IMG/VR virus record: IMGVR_UViG_2703718774_000012
Strand: one strand, 5' to 3'
Source of the DNA: a virus
Taxonomy: Duplodnaviria > Heunggongvirae > Uroviricota > Caudoviricetes
DNA length: 64,000 bases
The number at the start of each line of letters is the position of its first letter. The stretch's first letter is position 1. The notes under the pieces were generated by a model that was given only the letters and a program-made list of their open reading frames with translations, was not told the DNA's origin and ran no database searches. This document shows, one piece after another, positions 22,448 through 58,842 of the stretch. The position numbers and the translations under genes are program-made.

Positions 22448-22534
22448 TGGTGGGGAGTGATGGAGTCGAACCACCCGAGTCGCAATGACAGTAGATTTAC
22501 AGTCTACCCCGCTACCCCTACGGACTAACTCCCC
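22448..22534 (-). tRNA. candidate class-II tRNA, Tyr-like (anticodon GUA), 87 nt
   Basis: Perfect 7-bp acceptor stem, anticodon stem-loop GTAGA-CTGTAAA-TCTAC, long variable arm GTCATTGCGACTCG resembling E. coli tRNA-Tyr, T-arm GGTGG-TTCGACT-CCATC, 3' ACCA; D-arm irregular. Confidence 0.45.
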
Positions 22535-22539
22535 TAAAG

Positions 22540-22614
22540 TGGCGATGGTGGGTGGATTCGAACTACCGACCAGTTGGTTAACAGCCAACTGCTCTACCGC
22601 TGAGCTACACCATC
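22540..22614 (-). tRNA. tRNA-Asn (anticodon GUU)
   Basis: 75-nt cloverleaf GATGGTGTAGCTCAGCGGTAGAGC-A-GTTGG-CTGTTAA-CCAAC...TTCGAAT...CACCATCGCCA on minus strand. Confidence 0.8.
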
Positions 22615-40037: not shown

Positions 40038-40057
40038 TAGTAATCCCTTGTATTTTA

Positions 40058-40084
40058 AAGCTCCTTCGGGAGCTTTTTTATTTG
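40058..40084 (+). terminator. rho-independent terminator ending the sheath/tube operon
   Basis: aaAGCTCCttcgGGAGCTTTTTTATTT. Confidence 0.65.
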
Positions 40085-40153
40085 GAGAGGAAAGGGTGCA
40101 TTGAGGATACCTGACACACGAAGAGTGGCGGGGATCTCTCCCCGCCAGGTCTC

Positions 40154-40309
40154 TTACCTTTCAGATTCGTAGGCTGTGAAGACAGTGACCTCCGTCTGGC
40201 CGGTTCGGATTCGTACCTCGCAGAGGTCTTTCCTCGTTACCAGTGCCGTCACAATGACGGTTAAACAGATGACGATCAGAGCGATTAACATCGCTTTTTG
40301 CTGCTTCAT
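40154..40309 (-). CDS. hok: Hok/Gef-family type I toxin (51 aa)
   Basis: Translation MKQQKAMLIALIVICLTVIVTALVTRKDLCEVRIRTGQTEVTVFTAYESER nearly collinear with recalled Gef/Hok; not in ORF track (short). Confidence 0.8.
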   Translation of the reverse strand: MKQQKAMLIALIVICLTVIVTALVTRKDLCEVRIRTGQTEVTVFTAYESER

Positions 40310-40367
40310 AGCCTGCTTCTCCTTGACCTTTTGGTCGGTAAGAGGCTAATCTACGTATGCTAAGCAT
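40161..40367 (-). CDS. mok: mok-like overlapping reading frame (modulator of killing)
   Basis: 68-aa ORF overlapping hok out of frame; GAGG RBS upstream of its ATG. Confidence 0.5.
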   Translation of the reverse strand: MLSIRRLASYRPKGQGEAGYEAAKSDVNRSDRHLFNRHCDGTGNEERPLRGTNPNRPDGGHCLHSLRI

Positions 40368-40420
40368 AGATGTGGCCTCAGATTAATGTTAAGCGTCTTG
40401 CAGGACGCGTAATGTTATCT
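40355..40420 (+). ncRNA. candidate Sok-like antisense RNA complementary to mok leader
   Basis: Plus-strand TTGACC (40323-40328) / GCTAAT promoter-like elements facing into the mok translation-initiation region; ends not defined. Confidence 0.3.
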
Positions 40421-40490
40421 GGGGCTTTCTTCTATCTGCTTTTCGGGTAATGCCTGAAGCAGATAGCCTCAAGCACCCGCAACGATTGTA

Positions 40491-40817
40491 TCAATGTCTG
40501 GCTTTTTTTCTATAGAAATCACCTGGAAGGGTGAATATCCACATCAGAAGAAATGTTGCAGCAAACATGATCCCTAATGGCCAGACCGCGCCAAAGAAAA
40601 TCCATACTAAGATCTCCTCTGCTTGTTCTTTGCGGTCGATATCGACAAGCATTTTTCGGCTGATCATGTATACACAGAAGCCAATACAAACATATCCTGC
40701 AAAAGCGATCGCTAACTGTAAAAAATCAGATTGCATCTCCGACCTCAAACTGAAAACGCCAGGTGACTCCAGATTAGAGCAATCTATCACCCTCTGAATC
40801 CTGCCGGTATACCCCAT
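40491..40817 (-). CDS. small membrane protein (start uncertain; possibly 40736)
   Basis: ORF track; 2 TM helices; upstream part overlaps repL-like stop. Confidence 0.4.
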   Translation of the reverse strand: MGYTGRIQRVIDCSNLESPGVFSLRSEMQSDFLQLAIAFAGYVCIGFCVYMISRKMLVDIDRKEQAEEILVWIFFGAVWPLGIMFAATFLLMWIFTLPGDFYRKKARH

Positions 40818-41632
40818 TGTTCGTTATCTTTATTTTTGGCTAAAACCGCATTAAGAGCTTCGTTTACCGTCATGCAATGCGGCAGATTATCGAAGTTTGA
40901 TACCCCGCCAATATCAGGAGAACGCTTGTTCTTCAGGTAAGCATATTTCCGCGCTGCCGCCTCTACTTTCTGCTTGAACTCATGTTTTTGAGCGCGTTTT
41001 TTGGATAACCGCAGATTGTCAGCCTTTGCTTTTGCCTCAGCGATCCATGAAGTCAATTTTTTGAGTTTGGTCGTTCCGGCAGCGCCGGAAACTGATCTTT
41101 TTGTTTTTTTAAATTGTGACTTCTTATTCTTTATTGCCACGTCATCCTGACAGGGGGAGGGGGTATCATTTTGACATGGGGGTGTGGATAAAAAATTAAA
41201 TAAAGCCAATGTCTTAGCGAGAACAGCTTTAACCTTGGTTGCCGCTGAAGAGATCTTTAATTTGCTTTCAATCAGCGCATTTTTTGCTTGTTGTGCGAAG
41301 GCCAAAAAGGATGGTGTAAACCGGTACAGGTTAGCGCGACGTTCACGGTGATCGCCGATAACAATCTCTACTGACAGGATTCCTTTGTTTACAGCTTCAC
41401 GGAATGCACGAACGACGGTTGATTGGCTATAACCAGTTTCTGCCGCGATCAGGCGGTGAGGCTTGTGAATGAAGTATTCACTGGTTGTTGCCGCGAGATT
41501 TGCACATTGCGACAGGATATGCCCGGCGCTACGGGATAGACCGGAGTGTGTTACAAAGCAGGCCAATTCATAGCCAGAAAAAGTAAAATCGCTCATCGTT
41601 ATACAGCTCAGGAAAGTGACTTTAGCCAGCAT
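40787..41632 (-). CDS. repL: RepL-like lytic-replicon protein
   Basis: 281 aa directly downstream of kilA; assignment by size and gene order. Confidence 0.5.
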   Translation of the reverse strand: MLAKVTFLSCITMSDFTFSGYELACFVTHSGLSRSAGHILSQCANLAATTSEYFIHKPHRLIAAETGYSQSTVVRAFREAVNKGILSVEIVIGDHRERRANLYRFTPSFLAFAQQAKNALIESKLKISSAATKVKAVLAKTLALFNFLSTPPCQNDTPSPCQDDVAIKNKKSQFKKTKRSVSGAAGTTKLKKLTSWIAEAKAKADNLRLSKKRAQKHEFKQKVEAAARKYAYLKNKRSPDIGGVSNFDNLPHCMTVNEALNAVLAKNKDNEQWGIPAGFRG

Positions 41633-42531: not shown

Positions 42532-42548
42532 AAATTTATTAGAGCAAA
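42532..42548 (-). promoter_or_regulatory. C1-type operator upstream of kilA (minus strand reads TTTGCTCTAATAAATTT)
   Basis: 16/17 consensus match 70 nt upstream of kilA start. Confidence 0.5.
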
Positions 42549-43888: not shown

Positions 43889-43938
43889 AGTTACGGCCTC
43901 ACAATCAGGTTTAACAACCTGCTACCCGCTGTCAAACA

Positions 43939-44016
43939 GGTGGCAGGACGTGACAGGGTTGACAGACTGGCGATTGTGAAACCAGCAGGCCGAAGCCTCC
44001 CCATCACGCCCCACCA
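43939..44016 (-). ncRNA. c4: c4-like antisense repressor RNA of immI (~78 nt)
   Basis: Minus strand GGTGGGGCG...CACAATC...CTGTCAAC...CCTGCCACC: loops complementary to TTGACAG and GATTGTG repeats found upstream (~44085-44105) and at the icd RBS (~43895-43935); closing stem GGTGG/CCACC. Confidence 0.5.
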
Positions 44017-44202
44017 TAATTTGGGCGTAACGCGGTTTAACGGACACAAAAATACCGCAATATCGGAAATCTGCGGTTGTCCGCACAATCATTCAGGCTG
44101 TCAAACCTGGTCGCAGAATTTGCTACGACGGCGGAACTATAAGCCTGAACGATTAAAAGGTCAATATGATGCGAAAAGATAGCATTCGCGACTTAAAAAT
44201 AC

Positions 44203-44315: not shown

Positions 44316-44807
44316 ATGAGAAAACTATTACTACCGTTATTATTTATGGCTGGGACTGTTAATGCAGCATCAAGCGTGAAGGAGATTTGTACCGATTATA
44401 CGAAATACCTTGGGCACGTTTACGGCTTTGCTGTCAGTCAAGACGAATCCATGCGCAAGAAGTTACTGTCAGATATGAAACGTCTTAAACTTTCTGAAGC
44501 GATGGTGCAGCAAGAACTATATAAAGTCGCAACCAACGAAAATGCTAAATATCAATATTCTCGCCTATTAAATCCCGACGCAAACGAGATCAATCGAAGC
44601 ACTTTCGATTATATGGTAAAGGCATGCGAAACCGCTCCTGATTTTGCTATCCCTAGCTGGGGTGTGCTGGTGGCGAGCAATGCCGTTAATAAAGAAGATG
44701 TTGGAAGAAATGGCATTGACTCAATAAGAAATGCCCCAGGAATGCGCCATCAAAACGTACAGGGTACGCTTGAAGAACGAGCCAGGGGGCCGGGTGTAGC
44801 CCCATAA
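44316..44807 (+). CDS. secreted protein of unknown function (signal peptide)
   Basis: Start MRKLLLPLLFMAGTVNAAS with GGTGAGG RBS; AT-rich gene; C-terminus carries PGMR..VQGTLEERARG motif also present in the tape-measure protein. Confidence 0.45.
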   Translation: MRKLLLPLLFMAGTVNAASSVKEICTDYTKYLGHVYGFAVSQDESMRKKLLSDMKRLKLSEAMVQQELYKVATNENAKYQYSRLLNPDANEINRSTFDYMVKACETAPDFAIPSWGVLVASNAVNKEDVGRNGIDSIRNAPGMRHQNVQGTLEERARGPGVAP

Positions 44808-44895
44808 TTTAATAAATAATATTAAATTCTCTGGGCATAGTGGATCTAACAATATGGACTATGCCTATAATATCTAAAAACAAAAGGATAAAAAT

Positions 44896-45402
44896 ATGAA
44901 ATTGTATAAGTCATTGTATAGCTTTTTATTAATGTTCTCTTTTCTGCCATTATCAGCAATGGCAGGTTCTACCGTTTGGACGGTAGGAGGTGAGCAAGGG
45001 TGGAGAGAAATCTCTGCAACCAATGACGATGGTTACACAATTAACTTTTCCTGTGATGCTGGAGCAAGGGAAGGTTCAGAAGATCATATCGCTGGAAGAA
45101 ATTTGTATGTAAGCGGAGGAAAAGAGAATGCCGATTTTTCTACACGCGACACAATATCACGTAAAGCAGATGTAATTACTTTAATTGTTGGCCCGGATAG
45201 TTTTAATATTGGCACGCAAAACACTGCTCCTAATCGTAGGGAATGGTATTCATTTTGGAAGGCAGTGTCATCTACAAATGAAAAAAAAATAGATGTATAT
45301 ATCGGTTCGAGTCGAATCACATCATTCACTCTGGATGGTATTTCCAGTATTTATACAGAAGCTAAAAATGACGGGTGTTTAAAACAAGATGACGGTGAAT
45401 AA
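44896..45402 (+). CDS. secreted protein of unknown function (signal peptide)
   Basis: MKLYKSLYSFLLMFSFLPLSAMAGS; contains A9 homopolymer in coding sequence. Confidence 0.5.
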   Translation: MKLYKSLYSFLLMFSFLPLSAMAGSTVWTVGGEQGWREISATNDDGYTINFSCDAGAREGSEDHIAGRNLYVSGGKENADFSTRDTISRKADVITLIVGPDSFNIGTQNTAPNRREWYSFWKAVSSTNEKKIDVYIGSSRITSFTLDGISSIYTEAKNDGCLKQDDGE

Positions 45403-46573
45403 AGTGAAGGATATTAAAAAACTTGCACTTGGCTCAGTAAGCGATCTCTATAATAGAGATTCAAATATTACCTGGCGTGATAATTTAAGTAAAATCAAAA
45501 TGCCAGGATATACATCGGCAAGTGATTTATTAAAATCAGAATATGCTTCTAATAATTTGGTTAGACAGTTGGCAGAACTGCAAAAAAACGCAATCATTCC
45601 ATCGTATAGAGAACATATGGCAAACTTGCAAGAACAGTTAAGAATAGGGCGGCTAGCTCAAGAACAAATAGCAAGATTGAATTTGCAATCGTTACTTAGT
45701 GATTCTGTTAAAAAACAGCTTGCGAACATGACGAGCTTGAGAAGAATAAATAGCAAGCATCGTGAATTTCTTGAAATTCTACAGAAACAGGCCAAGGTTT
45801 ATCCCCCGCATGATGCAAATAAATACATTCAAATGCTAAGGAAGCAGGCAGAAATTGCTATGCCGTTACGAAACCAGTTCGAGATGCTTAATAAGCAAGC
45901 TGGTTTAAATAACATGCAAGCAATACTTAATGAATTGCGACAAAATGTAAGTCATAAGATAGATTTAAACAATGAAATAAAAGAATCATTAAAACAATAT
46001 ACCCTAGCGCAAAAGGCTTCATTACATCAAATAATGGAGCAAAGTCTTTCATCAATTGCACAGGCTTATGTCGAAGGTGCTATTGAAACATCTCACAACG
46101 AAAGTGATGTTCAAGACAAAGGATTAAATAAATCCAGTCCGACGTTCATTGATTCATTTAAGTCGCTCCCTCACCCGCTTCAGTTTATTATTATGTGGCT
46201 TTTAACAGAAGTGGTGCTTGGCGCTATTGCTGATTATGCAAAAGAACAAATCTTATCGCAAATACACAAGACAGAATCATATTCTGTATCCCTATATGAG
46301 GATGCACCAATATCAAAACAAAAATTAATTAAAGAAAACACAGAAATTAAGTGGGAAGATCTCAATGGTTTTAGGTTTATAACTGGTGATAACGTAAGAT
46401 TACATGTCAGTCCTTCTTTAAATAGTGAAGTGATTGAATGCATTGGCAAAAACACAATTGTTGCTATTTTAGATAAGAAAGATCGTCAATGGCTTTACGT
46501 GCAGGTTAAATCAGGGGATGAGTTTATTACTGGTTGGATTACACGAACATACACAAAGCCTCTTAAGGCTTGA
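45389..46573 (+). CDS. membrane-anchored protein with coiled-coil region and C-terminal SH3-like domain
   Basis: Internal TM LQFIIMWLLTEVVLGAIADY; C-terminus ...VRLHVSPSLNSEVIECIGKNTIVAILDKKDRQWLYVQV..GWI resembles bacterial SH3. Confidence 0.45.
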   Translation: MTVNKVKDIKKLALGSVSDLYNRDSNITWRDNLSKIKMPGYTSASDLLKSEYASNNLVRQLAELQKNAIIPSYREHMANLQEQLRIGRLAQEQIARLNLQSLLSDSVKKQLANMTSLRRINSKHREFLEILQKQAKVYPPHDANKYIQMLRKQAEIAMPLRNQFEMLNKQAGLNNMQAILNELRQNVSHKIDLNNEIKESLKQYTLAQKASLHQIMEQSLSSIAQAYVEGAIETSHNESDVQDKGLNKSSPTFIDSFKSLPHPLQFIIMWLLTEVVLGAIADYAKEQILSQIHKTESYSVSLYEDAPISKQKLIKENTEIKWEDLNGFRFITGDNVRLHVSPSLNSEVIECIGKNTIVAILDKKDRQWLYVQVKSGDEFITGWITRTYTKPLKA

Positions 46574-46703
46574 ATTTTATCTCCGCATCTTCGGATTGGG
46601 TGTTGATGACGATGTGCTACTTGAAGCACTTGAGTTGTTTTAACGTAGTATCTGAAATGTGTAGACTGACCGGTAACAAATGACAACTCGTAGAATCGGT
46701 TAA

Positions 46704-47294
<591 letters not shown>

Positions 47295-47304
47295 GGTCGT
47301 TGAT

Positions 47305-47916
47305 ATGGGACTTAATGTTGCATCAGTAAAGTCTTATATATCTTCGGCATTAACGACGACATTATTTGGCTCCGGCGTTGGTGAGCGGGAAGTTGGTAAG
47401 CTGACGTCAATCATCATGAACAAAATGCTGTTCGCGCAAGGATGGCAGTTCTCTGTCGAAGTTGATGGGCTGGAGGGGGCAGACTTCTTTGCCAAAGACA
47501 TTACCTACCACGATTACAGCATCGAATATGAAACGATTAAAATCGGCGGAGGGAATATCCTTCAGCCAACGGAGCGTTCGCCTGGGCAGATAACAATGAT
47601 GGTCAGGGATACCGGTGATGGCCTCGTTTTGGACTGGTTTAAGACGGCAAAAAGTCGGGTGATCAATCCTGACGGCACCGTGAACATACCGTCTAAATAT
47701 TTGCTCAATGTGCGTATTTATCGGTTGCTGTCTTCCGGTTTAACCAAACTGGAAAATGAGATGACGGTATTCCCGGTTACTACCGGCGATGTCACCTATG
47801 CGCGGGATCAGGTTACGGAATTTAAGTCATTCCCAATGACCTTCGCATTGCACAGCACGTTTAACCAATCCTCAAGTTCTTTGGCTTCCCTTCTGGGCTT
47901 TAGCTTTTCTCTTTGA
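47305..47916 (+). CDS. hypothetical tail-module protein (203 aa)
   Basis: ORF track; operon context. Confidence 0.5.
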   Translation: MGLNVASVKSYISSALTTTLFGSGVGEREVGKLTSIIMNKMLFAQGWQFSVEVDGLEGADFFAKDITYHDYSIEYETIKIGGGNILQPTERSPGQITMMVRDTGDGLVLDWFKTAKSRVINPDGTVNIPSKYLLNVRIYRLLSSGLTKLENEMTVFPVTTGDVTYARDQVTEFKSFPMTFALHSTFNQSSSSLASLLGFSFSL

Positions 47917-47930
47917 ATTAAGGAGCAAGG

Positions 47931-48812
47931 ATGCTTTTACCTCTTTTCCCGCTACCATCGCGGCCAACTGAATTGATCCAGTTCCGTCAGCCAAATATTG
48001 CTGATGCGATGCGTTTCAACTCGATAACACCGGAGGAACAAGAACAACAGACAACGGCGTATTTAAAAGCCTTGCTGGCTGAACCCGCGAAATATGATCC
48101 CCTGACATGGACGGCGCAGGACCGGATTACCGCGTTATGGTGGATATTTACTGGCTCCCGTGAAACACCGGTCGAGACATTCACCTACACCTGTAAACAT
48201 TGCGGTAAAGAGCATTATTACGATTGTGATATGAATGCTCTGGCTGAAGATATCCAGGTCCTGGAAGTGGAACCTTTCATTGACGATATTGAGGTGTCTG
48301 TAGAGGGAGTACCTTATCAATGGCGTATCGTGCCGCTTGATGGTTGGGCAATGGAAATGCTGGAGATGCGCCGTGCAGCATTGCCACCTGAAGACGACGC
48401 GGAATTCAAAGAAGCGATCGTTGATTTGCGTTTTTGGGAATTCGCTTATCAGTGTGAGCTTTATAACGATGTTAGTGGTACTCGTGAAGATCAGGCTGAG
48501 CGTCGTTATGAAACGATCAAACGGATGGCCATTGATACTGAATTTATGAAGCTGGCGGCACACATCCGGCTGGCTCATGAAAAGCTCGAACATGGTTTAC
48601 CGTGCTACATCGATAAAGGCGAAATGCGTCTTCGTCTCCCGCCGCACAAATGCCCAAACCAGGATACAAAGGAGTCCACAGAGGGTGCGTACACCCGTCT
48701 GTGGGTGCCCTTTCGGGCTACCGACTTCATTCCACAGGTGGGGATTGAAAAGCTATCAGACCTTAGTGTCCAACCTGGTTTTGTATGGGGGTATACCGAT
48801 TCAGGACGCTGA
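47931..48812 (+). CDS. hypothetical tail-module protein (293 aa), Cys-containing
   Basis: ORF track; immediately upstream of tape-measure gene. Confidence 0.5.
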   Translation: MLLPLFPLPSRPTELIQFRQPNIADAMRFNSITPEEQEQQTTAYLKALLAEPAKYDPLTWTAQDRITALWWIFTGSRETPVETFTYTCKHCGKEHYYDCDMNALAEDIQVLEVEPFIDDIEVSVEGVPYQWRIVPLDGWAMEMLEMRRAALPPEDDAEFKEAIVDLRFWEFAYQCELYNDVSGTREDQAERRYETIKRMAIDTEFMKLAAHIRLAHEKLEHGLPCYIDKGEMRLRLPPHKCPNQDTKESTEGAYTRLWVPFRATDFIPQVGIEKLSDLSVQPGFVWGYTDSGR

Positions 48813-48893
48813 AAGGCTTACTGAATCCTATGCGTTTTTCCTGTTGGAGAAACTGGAAGAAAAACTTAAACCGAAACGGTAGGCGATAAGATC

Positions 48894-51800
48894 ATGGAAA
48901 GAAAAAACGCCAATATTGACGATGTTATAAGGACAGTTGAAACCGCCAGCGCGAAAGAGCTGGAAGAGCTTGCAGGTATTCGGGAAGCTGTTGAAGATTT
49001 GAAAGGGGAACGAGTTGCAACTGTTGATCCTGTCTCTCGCAGTGTGTCGGCATTAAATCGCACAATCGAAAATTCCCGGCCAGACTTTGTGGCCAATGCG
49101 CCATCAGTAGACCCTATTGTTGACGCAATGAAACGGCTTAATTTAGGGGACGTTTCTCGTGTAGTTCAGGAGGATGTTGATCTACAGGAACCGCAGGCCA
49201 AATCAACTACGCGAAAGGGTAAAAAACGACGCAAGAAGGCTATAACAGAAGATGTAAAGGCGCAACGGACCGAAGCAGCCGAACACGCTCGCGAAATGTT
49301 CGGTCAAAAAGGCGGTGCGCAAAAAAGCCAAAACCAACGCGATGCGCGTGGTCGTTTTATTGGAAAGTCAGGGAGTAAGGCCGCAGCGGAAGATGCCCGT
49401 GCTGAACGTGCTGAAAAGGCCTGGCGCAAAGAGGATGATGAGCGTCTAAATGCTGAATCAGGTTTATTAAAAAAACTGTCAAAAGTAGCTGAAGGCATAG
49501 GTAACCCTTCAGAGACTCGTGCCGTCGATGCGTTAGGTTATGCCGTTGCTGGTCCATTGTGGGCAGCAGGGAAGGAGCTTGGCGGGATATCAAAAGAAGT
49601 TGGTGGATCGCTTAATGGTGCCAGAAAGTCTATTGCCGATGTGATTCGTGGCAATGACGATAACAGCCGTAGAAAAGGTTTTTTTAGGCGTAAATCGCAA
49701 AATAGTGCCGATGTCGTTCAGGTTAACACCCAAAAACGGACGGTTCAGGAACTTCAGGAGCAGACCAGCGAAATTAAAGAGGGCAATGACAAGATTCTCC
49801 GTGCCCTTGATCAGATAGCCAAAAACACCGGTAAAAAGAAGGGCGGCTTGCTGTCCAAACTATTTAGCCTGTTAGGGAAGGGGGCCGGTGGCGTCGCGTC
49901 GTTGTTAATGGGGCGTGGCATGCTGAAAAAAGCTGGAGCACTCGCTTTTGGCGCTCTGGGGGCAAAGAAACTTGTAGGAATGCTACGCGGTGGTGGCAAG
50001 AAGACTCTCGCTCATGAAGGCGGAGATTTGGCTGCCCGGGCAGCAGGTAAACTTGGATTAAAGGCAGTTGGTAAAGGGGCGTTACGCGCAATTCCCCTAG
50101 TCGGCACAGTGGCTGGAGGTATTTATGGTGCGGTAACCGGTTGGAATGATACAGAAGCGCAACGTCGAGCGTTTGGGCTTAAATCAGGACAAGATCCATC
50201 ATTCCAGCAAAAAGCCGCTTATACGTTAGCTAATGTTCTTGATATGGGGGGACTGGTATCTGGTATTAGCAGCGCCATTGGTGAGGTTCTCAAATCACTT
50301 GGATTTGAGGATATCGGCAATATGTTGCAATCATTTTCGACGGAAAGTATTGCCCTGGCCATTGATAGTGGGATTACCAACTTAGAAACATATATTTCTA
50401 ACCTTGGCGACACCATTTCTACCAAGTTCGATGATTACACAGCAAAGATTGGTGATGCTGTTTCAGCATGGTTTAGCGATACATCTAATAAGCTGCTTGA
50501 AAAGCTGGATGCCATCAAAGACTTCTTTACTGTCGATAACCTGAAACAGGTTTTCAGTGATGCAATTGATAGTGCAATTGATTTCATTAAGAACCCAGGG
50601 AAACACATTAAAGAGGCGGCTGGTAATATTTGGGATGGGGTTAAAAATTTACCAGGTAAAGCATTAGATGCAGCGGTTGATGCCGTTAAAAATACCCCTG
50701 CGGCAATGATTGTATCAAAAATACCCAATCCGATCGGCGAGGCTAATGCGAAAGAAATCACTCCAGAGTCAAAAGTTCCGGTTAATAGCCACCAGGGGAC
50801 ATCTGATTCTAAAACTGAATCCGATGCCAAACAGACTAATATTGCTGCCCGCGTGATATATGCGGCCCTGGATATGGCGAAAGATAGCAATAAAACAGTT
50901 AAAGAAACTGCTAATCAGATTATCAATGCAAATGCCGTAGAAACAGGAAATAAAGCAGCACAAACAATTGATGCTGCCTTGGGCCAGTCTGCTACAGGTA
51001 AGGAGGAAGCATTAAGTGCATATGAGATAGATAAACGTCGATTTAACAATGGCAAGGATGTTTCTTTGCCAAAATTAAATGCTGCCGGATACCAATGGAT
51101 TTCTGACAATGCCGATTATTTTGATGAGCTTGAACGTAAGTATGGGCTTGAAAAAGGGATTCTGTCAGCAGTTGCATCCGCAGAGTCTAGTGCAGGCCAG
51201 AGAACTGGAAATCCAGTAGACAAAAACGGGAACAAACTTTCATCTGCCCTTGGGGCTTTTCAGATCACTAAAGGTACAAGGGAGGATCTTGGACTCAGCG
51301 ATGCTGATGCCATGGATACACGAAAAGCAGCTGATGGTGCCGCCAGATACCTAAGTATGCTGATGAACCGTTATAACGGTGACCAGGGTCGTGCAATAGC
51401 TGCCTATCATGCTGGTATGGGGCATGTTGATAAGGGGAGAGTAGTCGCAGGTACCGGCGAATATGTTACTCGTGTCAGAGGGTATCAGCAGATGCTCAAT
51501 AATGGTGCCGTTTATGGCTCTAAGGTAGATCATAGCGCACCAGCAATTTACGAAAAGATACCTGATAACGCCGTTATCGATCAGTCTACTGGCCTGGCGT
51601 TTACCCCTGGTGATAGCCCGTTTGAGAAAGGCGGTCTGGTCGACAAAATCGGCAATGCTGTTGGCGTTAACGATCTGGTCAACAAATTCATGAATGGCCG
51701 GGGGATGCGTCGGGAAGTCGTTCAGGGAACGCTAGAAGAACGTGCACGAGGGAAGGGGACCGCAACAGCAGCTGGCAATGTGTATGTTGATACTCCGATG

Positions 51801-58264: not shown

Positions 58265-58842
58265 TGACATTCAGAATGAGTGAACAATCACGGACCATAA
58301 AAATTTATAATCTACTGGCTGGAACCAATGAGTTTATTGGTGAAGGTGATGCATACATTCCACCTCATACAGGTCTGCCTGCAAACAGTACCGATATTGC
58401 CCCGCCAGATATTCCGGCTGGCTTCGTGGCCGTTTTCAACAGTGATGAGGCATCGTGGAATCTCGTTGAAGACCATCGGGGAAAAACCGTCTATGACGTG
58501 GCTTCCGGCGACGCGTTATTTATTTCTGAACTTGGCCCATTACCGGAAAATGTCACCTGGTTATCCCCGGAAGGGGAGTTTCAGAAGTGGAACGGCACAG
58601 CCTGGGTGAAAGATGCAGAAGCAGAAAAACTGTTCCGGATCCGGAAGGCGGAAGAAACAAAAAACAGCCTGATGCAGATGGCCAGTGAGCATATTGCGCC
58701 ACTTCAGGATGCCGTAGATTTGGATATTGCGACGGAGGAAGAGGCATCGTTACTGACTGCATGGAAGACATATCGGGTATTGTTGAATCGTGTTGATACA
58801 ACAGTAGCATCGGATGTTGAGTGGCCAGTCGCCCCGCAATAA
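58264..58842 (+). CDS. tail fibre assembly chaperone (Tfa/U-like)
   Basis: 192 aa; start overlaps fibre stop (TAATG); pattern ...[15 protein letters not shown]...[19 protein letters not shown] typical of Tfa. Confidence 0.75.

Follow-up and report, generated by a model that had tools for sequence, protein, structure and literature searches.

Introduction

The founding member of the type I toxin-antitoxin class is the hok/mok/sok (parB) locus of plasmid R1. Among chromosomal hok loci many are inactive, including most of those in E. coli K-12. Toxicity of Hok, neutralisation by Sok and activation of the mRNA by 3' processing have been reported for R1 (PMC9841398) and for hokW/sokW (PMC8621323). 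The latter locus belongs to the Stx2 prophage Sp5 of E. coli O157:H7 Sakai and was found experimentally to encode a toxin and an RNA antitoxin (PMC8621323). In R1, expression of hok requires translation of the mok leader frame, and the published coordinates place the mok Shine-Dalgarno (SD) sequence GAGG at a position that includes G105 and A106, the mok ATG at 116-118 and the hok ATG at 174-176 (PMC9841398).

Here we describe a member of this family in a 64,000-nucleotide stretch of viral DNA, referred to hereafter as the window, which its sequence identifies as a P1-like phage-plasmid of E. coli. Positions 40094-40512, about 420 bp from the -35 hexamer of the hok promoter to the fbi element, very probably hold a hok/mok/sok type I toxin-antitoxin cassette that is intact and belongs to the hokD/hokW subgroup; it is inserted between the tail gene bplB and repL, a gene of the lytic replicon. 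The elements of the cassette are recognised from sequence and from structure models; by analogy with the R1 family, its likeliest role would be to stabilise the low-copy plasmid prophage together with ParAB, and help with lysis may be a second role. A first-pass annotation had placed the feature at 40154-40420. That interval does fall within the module but understates its extent, which is approximately 40094-40512. The family of the cassette, its mechanism, its subgroup and its location in P1-like elements are already on record, and we claim no substantive novelty for them.

The toxin gene and the mok leader frame

The hok gene is a minus-strand reading frame at 40154-40309 (51 aa and a stop codon; product MKQQKAMLIALIVICLTVIVTALVTRKDLCEVRIRTGQTEVTVFTAYESER). 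The frame had been called Hok/Gef-like at first pass, with a comparison to the Hok/Gef model PF01848 proposed as a check. The comparison bears the call out: the product matches the full HOK_GEF model (1-42 of 42, E=2.4e-22, 78.7 bits against a cut-off of 22) and also matches PHROG 251, 'MokW-like host killing' (E=4.9e-32). Together with the Rfam match to the leader described below, these scores exclude a chance open reading frame. The RefSeq entry for the product is WP_001313475.1, 'HokD'. The gene had also been said to escape the ORF track, and it does, because it is shorter than 60 aa; this holds for that track only, RefSeq having annotated the gene as hokD. Two NCBIfam Hok models scored below their curated cut-offs (NF007279, a Hok family subfamily model, 49.5 bits against 73; NF007290, the HokA equivalog, 38.1 bits against 89). 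We set these scores aside as uninformative; membership by Pfam and Rfam is unaffected, and the RefSeq name 'hokD' must therefore stem from another rule. The hok SD sequence, GGAG (40319-40322, minus strand), lies within CAAGGAGAAG, an invariant block that is also kept in the R1-type locus.

The mok leader frame (40161-40367, minus strand; 68 codons and a stop codon) is read in another frame than hok. Its ATG, which precedes that of hok by 58 nt, is invariant (60/60 distinct homologues), and the frame ends 7 nt before the hok stop codon. An equally invariant SD sequence, GAGG (40376-40379, minus strand; G100 A101 G102 G103), precedes the mok ATG by 8 nt. The overlap of the 68-aa frame with the toxin gene had been described as the arrangement expected of hok/mok, and rightly. 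The published R1 coordinates give an identical out-of-frame offset of 58 nt (PMC9841398), so the arrangement in the window is canonical and we dismiss the idea that it is an anomaly. The 68-aa product had no match in Pfam or NCBIfam, and its sole match was to PHROG 37205 (E=8.3e-21), where function is unassigned; we do not regard it as a protein in its own right. By analogy with R1, the absent domain matches are consistent with the translation of mok itself, rather than its product, being what is important (PMC9841398).

The predicted hok mRNA and its fold

A promoter for the hok/mok mRNA is predicted on the minus strand at 40485-40512. It has a -35 hexamer TAGAAA (40512-40507), a 16-nt spacer and an extended -10 TGnTACAAT (TG at 40493-92, TACAAT at 40490-40485), and the promoter scan gave 9/12 matches plus the TG. 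Seven nt past the -10 is G40478, the first base both of the conserved module and of the Rfam model RF01794 ('sok'), which matches from 40478 to 40304 over its whole length (model 1-157 of 157; 114.8 bits against a gathering score of 59, E=1e-26). No other such match occurs in the 64-kb window. The match follows the hok-sense (minus) strand up to the hok AUG and therefore marks the hok leader and the Sok target, the Sok gene being its complement. We discarded a second 'sok' match (plus strand, 40421-40569) whose 21 bits fall far under the gathering score, together with Rfam matches to ceN48, CRISPR-DR46 and sbrA.

The core of the predicted full-length hok mRNA, from tac to fbi, is 385 nt long (40094-40478, minus strand). 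The locus is homologous to hok modules from unrelated phage contexts over a stretch that starts at 40490 or 40480 and stops at 40094. The 5' end of the mRNA is the tac element, GGGUGCUUGAGG (40467-40478, minus strand), which is essentially invariant across 60 distinct homologues and aligns with GGCGCUUGAGG of the R1-type locus. The fbi element, CCUCAAUGCACCC (40094-40106, minus strand), is complementary to tac. All three alternative partners of tac that the R1 model demands are present in silico, with duplex energies of -19.4 kcal/mol for fbi, -16.2 kcal/mol for the metastable partner just downstream and -10.7 kcal/mol for ucb.

Beside tac is a leader hairpin (40432-40466, minus strand) with arms at 40466-40457 and 40441-40432, the counterpart of which in the R1-type locus has the stem CUUUCUGCC/GGCAGAAAG. 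The arms are the inverted repeats (CTATCTGCTT at 40432-41 and AAGCAGATAG at 40457-66) that the first-pass annotation had likened, at approximately 40432-40470, to the fold-back elements of hok mRNA. The repeats are there, but they form the leader hairpin, and the fold-back element is fbi at 40094-40106. Further downstream, the ucb or anti-SD box GCCCC (40421-40425, minus strand) pairs with GAGGC in helix 5 of the minimum free energy (MFE) fold. By analogy with R1 (PMC9841398), we infer that this box would hide the mok SD sequence in the closed form of the mRNA and pair with tac in the truncated form.

The unconstrained MFE fold of 40478 to 40094 pairs nt 1-12 (tac) with nt 373-385 (fbi), sequesters the mok SD sequence (40379-76) with GCCCC (40425-21) and buries the mok start region against the 3' UTR. 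Its energy is -156.5 kcal/mol, compared to -107.6 ± 5.5 kcal/mol for shuffled sequences (z=-8.9). When the tac/ucb stem was enforced on a 3'-truncated RNA, the structure lay within 2.9 kcal/mol of the MFE, and the mok SD/GCCUC stem formed.

Helix 16 of the fold is a G+C-rich hairpin in the 3' UTR, GGCGGGG-AGAGAU-CCCCGCC (40127-40146, minus strand), which is likely to protect the truncated mRNA as its 3' stem. The loop of this hairpin, GGATCTCTCC, has been reported as the target of IS186B in pSvP1 (PMC6906374), and in three related P1-like loci (L010, L013 and L019) homology is interrupted at the hairpin. Beyond fbi, the transcript probably extends to a hairpin of the P1 backbone, AAAGCTCC-TTCG-GGAGCTTT (40057-40076), which can form on both strands. 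The terminator scan picks out this hairpin on the plus strand, where it terminates the bplB tail operon. Read on the minus strand, the hairpin has only UUUAAAAU, a poor U-tract, after it, and it is the probable, weaker terminator of the hok mRNA. The 3' end of the hok mRNA is uncertain because the module's own terminator has been lost and the backbone hairpin, with its poor U-tract, would be used.

The predicted Sok antisense gene

A Sok promoter is predicted on the plus strand at 40323-40352, convergent with that of hok. It had been proposed earlier as TTGACC...GCTAAT, and both hexamers are found in the window, the -35 TTGACC at 40323-40328 and GCTAAT at 40345-40350, following a 16-nt spacer. 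The choice of GCTAAT as the -10 did not hold up: it is without an A at position 2 and was missed by the scan, and homology favours TAATCT (40347-40352; 18-nt spacer). Judged by sequence, the Sok -10 is probably TAATCT, 2 nt downstream of GCTAAT, and the hexamer is weak either way; neither was reported by the generic promoter scan. In a comparison with the R1-type locus and 59 homologues, the promoter aligns with the R1-type TTGCGC-17-TATCCT and the lambdoid TTGCCT-17-TAACCT.

The predicted Sok RNA (40359-40433, plus strand) is about 70 nt long, its ends having been placed from the position of the promoter and the U-tail. Its single-stranded 5' tail of approximately 12-15 nt (~40359-40373, with a start near 40359-62) would complement the mok start codon and be followed by a long hairpin (40374-40426) and then by the U-rich tail UUCUUCU (40427-40433). 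The energy of the predicted fold is -29.9 kcal/mol, compared to -15.6 ± 2.7 kcal/mol for shuffled sequences (z=-5.3). As modelled, this combination of 5' tail, hairpin and U-tail at the homologous place is the architecture of Sok. The earlier suggestion that the elements are positioned to make a Sok-like antisense RNA agrees with the convergent promoter-like hexamers, the predicted hairpin and the U-tail.

Comparative test of the fold

Searching IMG/VR with the Hok protein yielded 80 loci, and an alignment was made of 60 distinct module sequences, that of the window among them. In helix 1 (tac-fbi, 12 pairs), 720/720 cells were paired in the 60 distinct sequences; all changes were from G-C to G-U, and the position that commonly varies (C, T or A) is the one base that bulges. 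The leader hairpin (helix 2) was paired in 97.8% of cells and showed two compensatory pairs (A-U to G-C, n=8; C-G to U-A, n=10), while the G+C-rich 3' hairpin (helix 16) was paired in 92% of cells and showed one. Compensatory changes were also present in the Sok-target hairpin and in the helix between the mok region and the 3' end. Over all helices, 93.2% of cells were paired compared to 36-43% when the partners were slid. The aligned sequences are closely related and one of them supplied the structure, so these counts support the fold without proving it. The conserved blocks that are common to the R1-type locus are tac, the mok SD and ATG, UAGCCUCUUACC, the hok SD and ATG, and fbi.

Comparison with plasmid R1 and with prophage modules

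In R1 and in the window the elements follow the same order: tac, leader hairpin, ucb/anti-SD box, mok SD and ATG, UAGCCUCUUACC, hok SD and ATG, 3' G+C hairpin and fbi. The R1 landmarks are each numbered exactly 4 nt larger than those of the window (mok SD 100-103, mok ATG 112-114, hok ATG 170-172), the offset from mok to hok is 58 nt in both, and the mok SD motif and its spacing are alike. The predicted Sok promoter of the window is convergent and sits where that of the R1-type locus does, the distance from tac to fbi is 385 nt and 391 nt respectively, and the topology of the closed fold is predicted to be alike for the window and the R1-type IncFII locus. In contrast, the Hok proteins of the window and R1 share only 42% identity, mok has 68 codons in the window and 70 in R1, the Sok hairpin is longer in the window (~53 nt) and the promoter hexamers are unlike those of R1. 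The carriers also differ, a phage-plasmid in the case of the window and a conjugative IncFII plasmid in the case of R1. In the IncFII R1-type variant that was fetched for comparison, the upstream ATG is in frame with hok.

The hokD/hokW modules of lambdoid, Rac and Stx prophages are approximately 87-91% identical in DNA to the window over the whole 397-nt module, and the copies in Stx2-converting phages, the type that carries hokW/sokW, are approximately 88% identical. Hok of the window differs from prophage Hok at about 1-3 of 51 residues (3/51 relative to the commonest prophage variant), and tac and fbi are identical between the window and the prophage modules. P1-like copies have a 1-nt insertion (GGTCAAGG, compared to GG-CAAGG in the prophage copies) that shifts mok out of frame with hok, as in R1, whereas the upstream ATG is in frame with hok in 50/50 prophage-type copies and would give a 70-aa extended Hok. 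The Sok-recognition patch around the mok start of the window is likewise unlike that of the prophage modules. Lambdoid homologues have a different hok promoter at the same place (TTGCGG/TTGGCG-17-TAGAAT) and their own terminator right after fbi, which the P1-like copy lacks.

The coding region of hokD (relF) in the Qin prophage of E. coli K-12, the gene whose name RefSeq gives to that of the window, is approximately 91% identical. For hokD in the listed O16:H48 and laboratory-strain genomes, the match is confined to positions 168-397 of the query (58% of the module). The hokD of these listed genomes is without the leader and has no tac, ucb, mok start, Sok promoter or Sok RNA, whereas the copy in the window is complete.

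The locus in the P1-like replicon

The first-pass annotation had put the locus between the tail operon terminator and the repL-like gene. It is indeed bounded by the bplB terminator (40057-40076) and repL (40787-41632), with an additional 81-aa ORF (40491-40736) between hok and repL. The flanking genes are those of P1 (22, 21, pmgG and bplB on one side; repL, kilA, ant and icd on the other), and ParA, ParB and a RepB-type initiator are encoded approximately 6-10 kb from the locus. Over the 1-kb region, identity reaches 100% with E. coli O111:H- plasmid pO111_2 and with phage vB_EcoM-Ro157c2YLVW, and it is 99.3-99.5% with several 'P1' records. The window and pO111_2 are collinear over ~31 kb at 99.5% identity.

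Reference P1 carries rlfA, rlfB and pmgF in the corresponding interval. Because homology to P1 stops within the C1 operator just after repL and restarts at the hairpin after bplB, the ~690 bp that hold the 81-aa ORF and hok/sok take the place of ~1.8 kb of P1. The breakpoint falls inside the operator, and for this reason only the left half of it (ATTGCTCTAAT) survives after repL, where no C1 operator was found at up to 3 mismatches. We considered control by C1 at this repL-proximal site and regard it as unproven. A C1 operator match at 42532-42548 belongs to the kilA-repL operon. The hok/sok interval is a published variable region (region 5) of P1-like phage-plasmids (PMC9603915), and Venturini et al. 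reported '2 orfs including antibacterial toxin' in place of rlfA-rlfB-pmgF (PMC6906374). For hok/sok in P1-like elements, the literature gave indirect mentions only (PMC6906374, PMC9603915) and no explicit account.

At 99% identity or more, the module is present in 231 PLSDB plasmids, and the whole arrangement in at least 216. The 397-nt module was matched in 4739/5426 complete E. coli genomes, at a median of 2 places per genome and a maximum of 9.

Discussion

Since the elements of this locus match those of R1 one to one, its molecular mechanism can be inferred with high confidence. The minus-strand promoter would give rise to a stable hok mRNA of approximately 385-430 nt, in which the 5' tac pairs with the 3' fbi and the anti-SD box hides the ribosome-binding site of mok. 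With tac and fbi closed and that site hidden, the full-length mRNA would be neither translated nor bound by Sok. Slow trimming of the 3' end would take off fbi and let tac move to the anti-SD box (ucb), making mok translatable; ribosomes on mok would open the hok start, and Hok, a 51-aa membrane toxin, would be made. For as long as the plasmid prophage is present, the convergent plus-strand promoter would produce a short-lived Sok RNA of ~70 nt. On the trimmed mRNA, the mok start region would be bound by the free 5' tail of Sok, leading to a block of translation and to cleavage by RNase III. Upon loss of the plasmid prophage, or a stop in Sok synthesis, Sok would be depleted first and the cell would be killed.

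Post-segregational killing of this kind suits a low-copy plasmid prophage and, by analogy with the R1 family, may be what the cassette adds to ParAB in the P1-like element, as the first-pass annotation had stated it does. This role is less certain than the mechanism: the closest tested relative, hokW/sokW, was instead reported to aid phage release on induction (PMC8621323). The same device may have its main role in lysis: induction would remove Sok, and Hok would damage the inner membrane, advance or assist lysis and increase phage release. We treat this as a tentative alternative. It is the role reported for hokW/sokW of the Stx2 prophage Sp5, and the window module is ~88% identical to the Stx-phage copies, but the effect in Sp5 was only two-fold (PMC8621323). 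The position of the cassette also fits a lytic role. The kilA-repL lytic operon, which has the C1 operator match at 42532-42548, runs in the same direction and is immediately upstream of the cassette; only the 81-aa ORF, and no strong terminator, lies between them, and read-through from the operon would counter Sok transcription. On the other hand, P1 has its own holin and endolysin system, and the benefit of post-segregational killing to a low-copy plasmid prophage is plain. One role does not preclude the other; killing, lysis and exclusion are all compatible with one another.

A more specific version of read-through strikes us as rather improbable. On induction, transcription from the C1-repressed kilA-repL-orf81 operon might silence the convergent Sok promoter by collision and yield 5'-extended hok transcripts, and the P1-specific 1-nt insertion, which gives the R1-like mok frame and improves the Sok -35 to TTGACC, might be an adaptation to this setting. 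If this coupling were true, the release of Hok would be tied to the lysis-lysogeny switch, and a single cassette would be an addiction module for the plasmid during lysogeny and a lysis or abortive timer during lytic growth.

It is unlikely that the cassette acts mainly in abortive infection or phage exclusion, where an invader would shut down host transcription, Sok would decay and Hok would kill the cell before the invader matures. Defence cargo is common in the variable regions of prophages and phage-plasmids (PMC9603915), and by the account cited in PMC8621323, R1 hok/sok on a high-copy plasmid cut the plating efficiency of T4 by 42% and plaque size by ~85%. The reported T4 effect is weak, however, and comes from a high-copy plasmid. 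Very unlikely, because all elements are intact in the window, is an inactive relic that persists by hitch-hiking, like most chromosomal hok loci of E. coli K-12: the loss of the whole leader from hokD in the listed O16:H48 and laboratory-strain genomes, the 3' UTR homology broken at the G+C hairpin in three related P1-like loci, and the exchange of the module's terminator and promoter -35 on entry into the P1 backbone could be read that way, but the window has every R1-defined element and no IS, its hok and mok reading frames are both open, the changes among homologues keep pairing, and the arrangement is conserved at 99% or more in over 200 plasmids.

In our preferred reading, that of a cassette whose likeliest role would be in plasmid stability, a P1-like element carries a complete type I toxin-antitoxin cassette beside ParAB. 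The non-coding parts of such a cassette (Sok RNA, tac and fbi) escape gene callers and ORF tracks. The cassette may help explain the stable persistence of P1-like phage-plasmids, which often carry resistance genes.

Frame and variability of the hok module

A single-nucleotide insertion at window position 40326 (minus-strand GGTCAAGG) distinguishes all 10 P1-like copies from the 50 prophage-type copies in alignment A1, which comprises 60 distinct hok module sequences (columns 145-156). Owing to this insertion, the mok ATG and hok are offset by 58 nt in the P1-like copies and are out of frame, as is also the case for R1. In contrast, the offset is 57 nt in the prophage-type copies of the alignment, where mok is in frame with hok and yields a 70-aa N-extended Hok. 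The upstream ATG of an IncFII R1-type variant (L084) is likewise in frame with hok. Because of the inserted base, the -35 element of Sok reads TTGACC in the P1-like copies, which also gain a small GACC-AAAA-GGUC stem.

The variability of the module is highest in the mok SD-to-start region (window 40350-40380; about columns 105-132 of A1), the stretch targeted by the 5' tail of Sok, while the remainder is highly conserved. Mean entropy in this region was 0.73 bits, compared to about 0-0.1 in the hok coding sequence, and 20 variants were present among the 60 aligned sequences. Genomes carry up to nine copies of the module, and the variable target, judged from the alignment, fits a diversification of Sok specificity among them. 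Chromosomal Sok RNAs are reported not to silence R1 hok (PMC9841398).

Replacement of the rlfA-rlfB-pmgF region

The hok/sok cassette arrived jointly with an 81-aa ORF (40491-40736, minus strand) that lies between repL and hok, and together they replaced rlfA-rlfB-pmgF of reference P1. The longest form of the ORF reaches 40817. Its product appears hydrophobic by eye and matches PHROG 3772, a family of unknown function (E=7.9e-54); searches of Pfam and NCBIfam returned no match. The 3' end of the ORF contains both the hok -35 element and a weak terminator-like hairpin (40534-40519). The recombination breakpoint relative to reference P1 is inside the C1 operator Orlf, of which only the left half (ATTGCTCTAAT) is left directly past the repL stop (40768-40784, minus strand). 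Nine matches to the C1 operator (≤3 mismatches) are scattered through the window, compared to 0.33 expected by chance.

Prophage copies at lambdoid-type loci (for example, L041 and L042) have their own terminator (AACCCGC-TTCG-GCGGGTTTTT) directly after fbi, the 3' fold-back element, and a promoter, TTGCGG/TTGGCG-17-TAGAAT, before +1. In the P1-like copies, by contrast, both signals are swapped for backbone or flanking sequence.

Relation to pO111_2 and interrupted loci

Because collinearity with pO111_2 is broken at 44795-46667 and 50952-51559, and the segment between the breaks (46667-50952) is only 97.9% identical, compared to about 99.3-99.5% elsewhere, the window and this plasmid are close relatives but separate elements. 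C4, the antisense RNA of P1 immunity, is also present in the window along with its targets a1/b1, and there are four tRNA genes compared to three annotated in reference P1; these features lie at 43936-44021, 44090-44142 and 20350-22614, all on the minus strand. Rfam IS009 (RF02111) matched 58607-58805 on the plus strand with 192.4 bits (gathering score 117).

In three related P1-like loci (L010, L013 and L019), homology stops within the G+C hairpin of the hok 3'-UTR (about 1679 onward), corresponding to window 40131-40142. The sequence beyond the breakpoint, ...TTAAGGGTTGAACCATCTGAAGAATGCGACGCC, resembles an IS186 end. The interruption agrees with a description of IS186B inserted in pSvP1 with target repeats GGATCTCTCC (PMC6906374). 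An IS186-type insertion in this hairpin would part hok from fbi.
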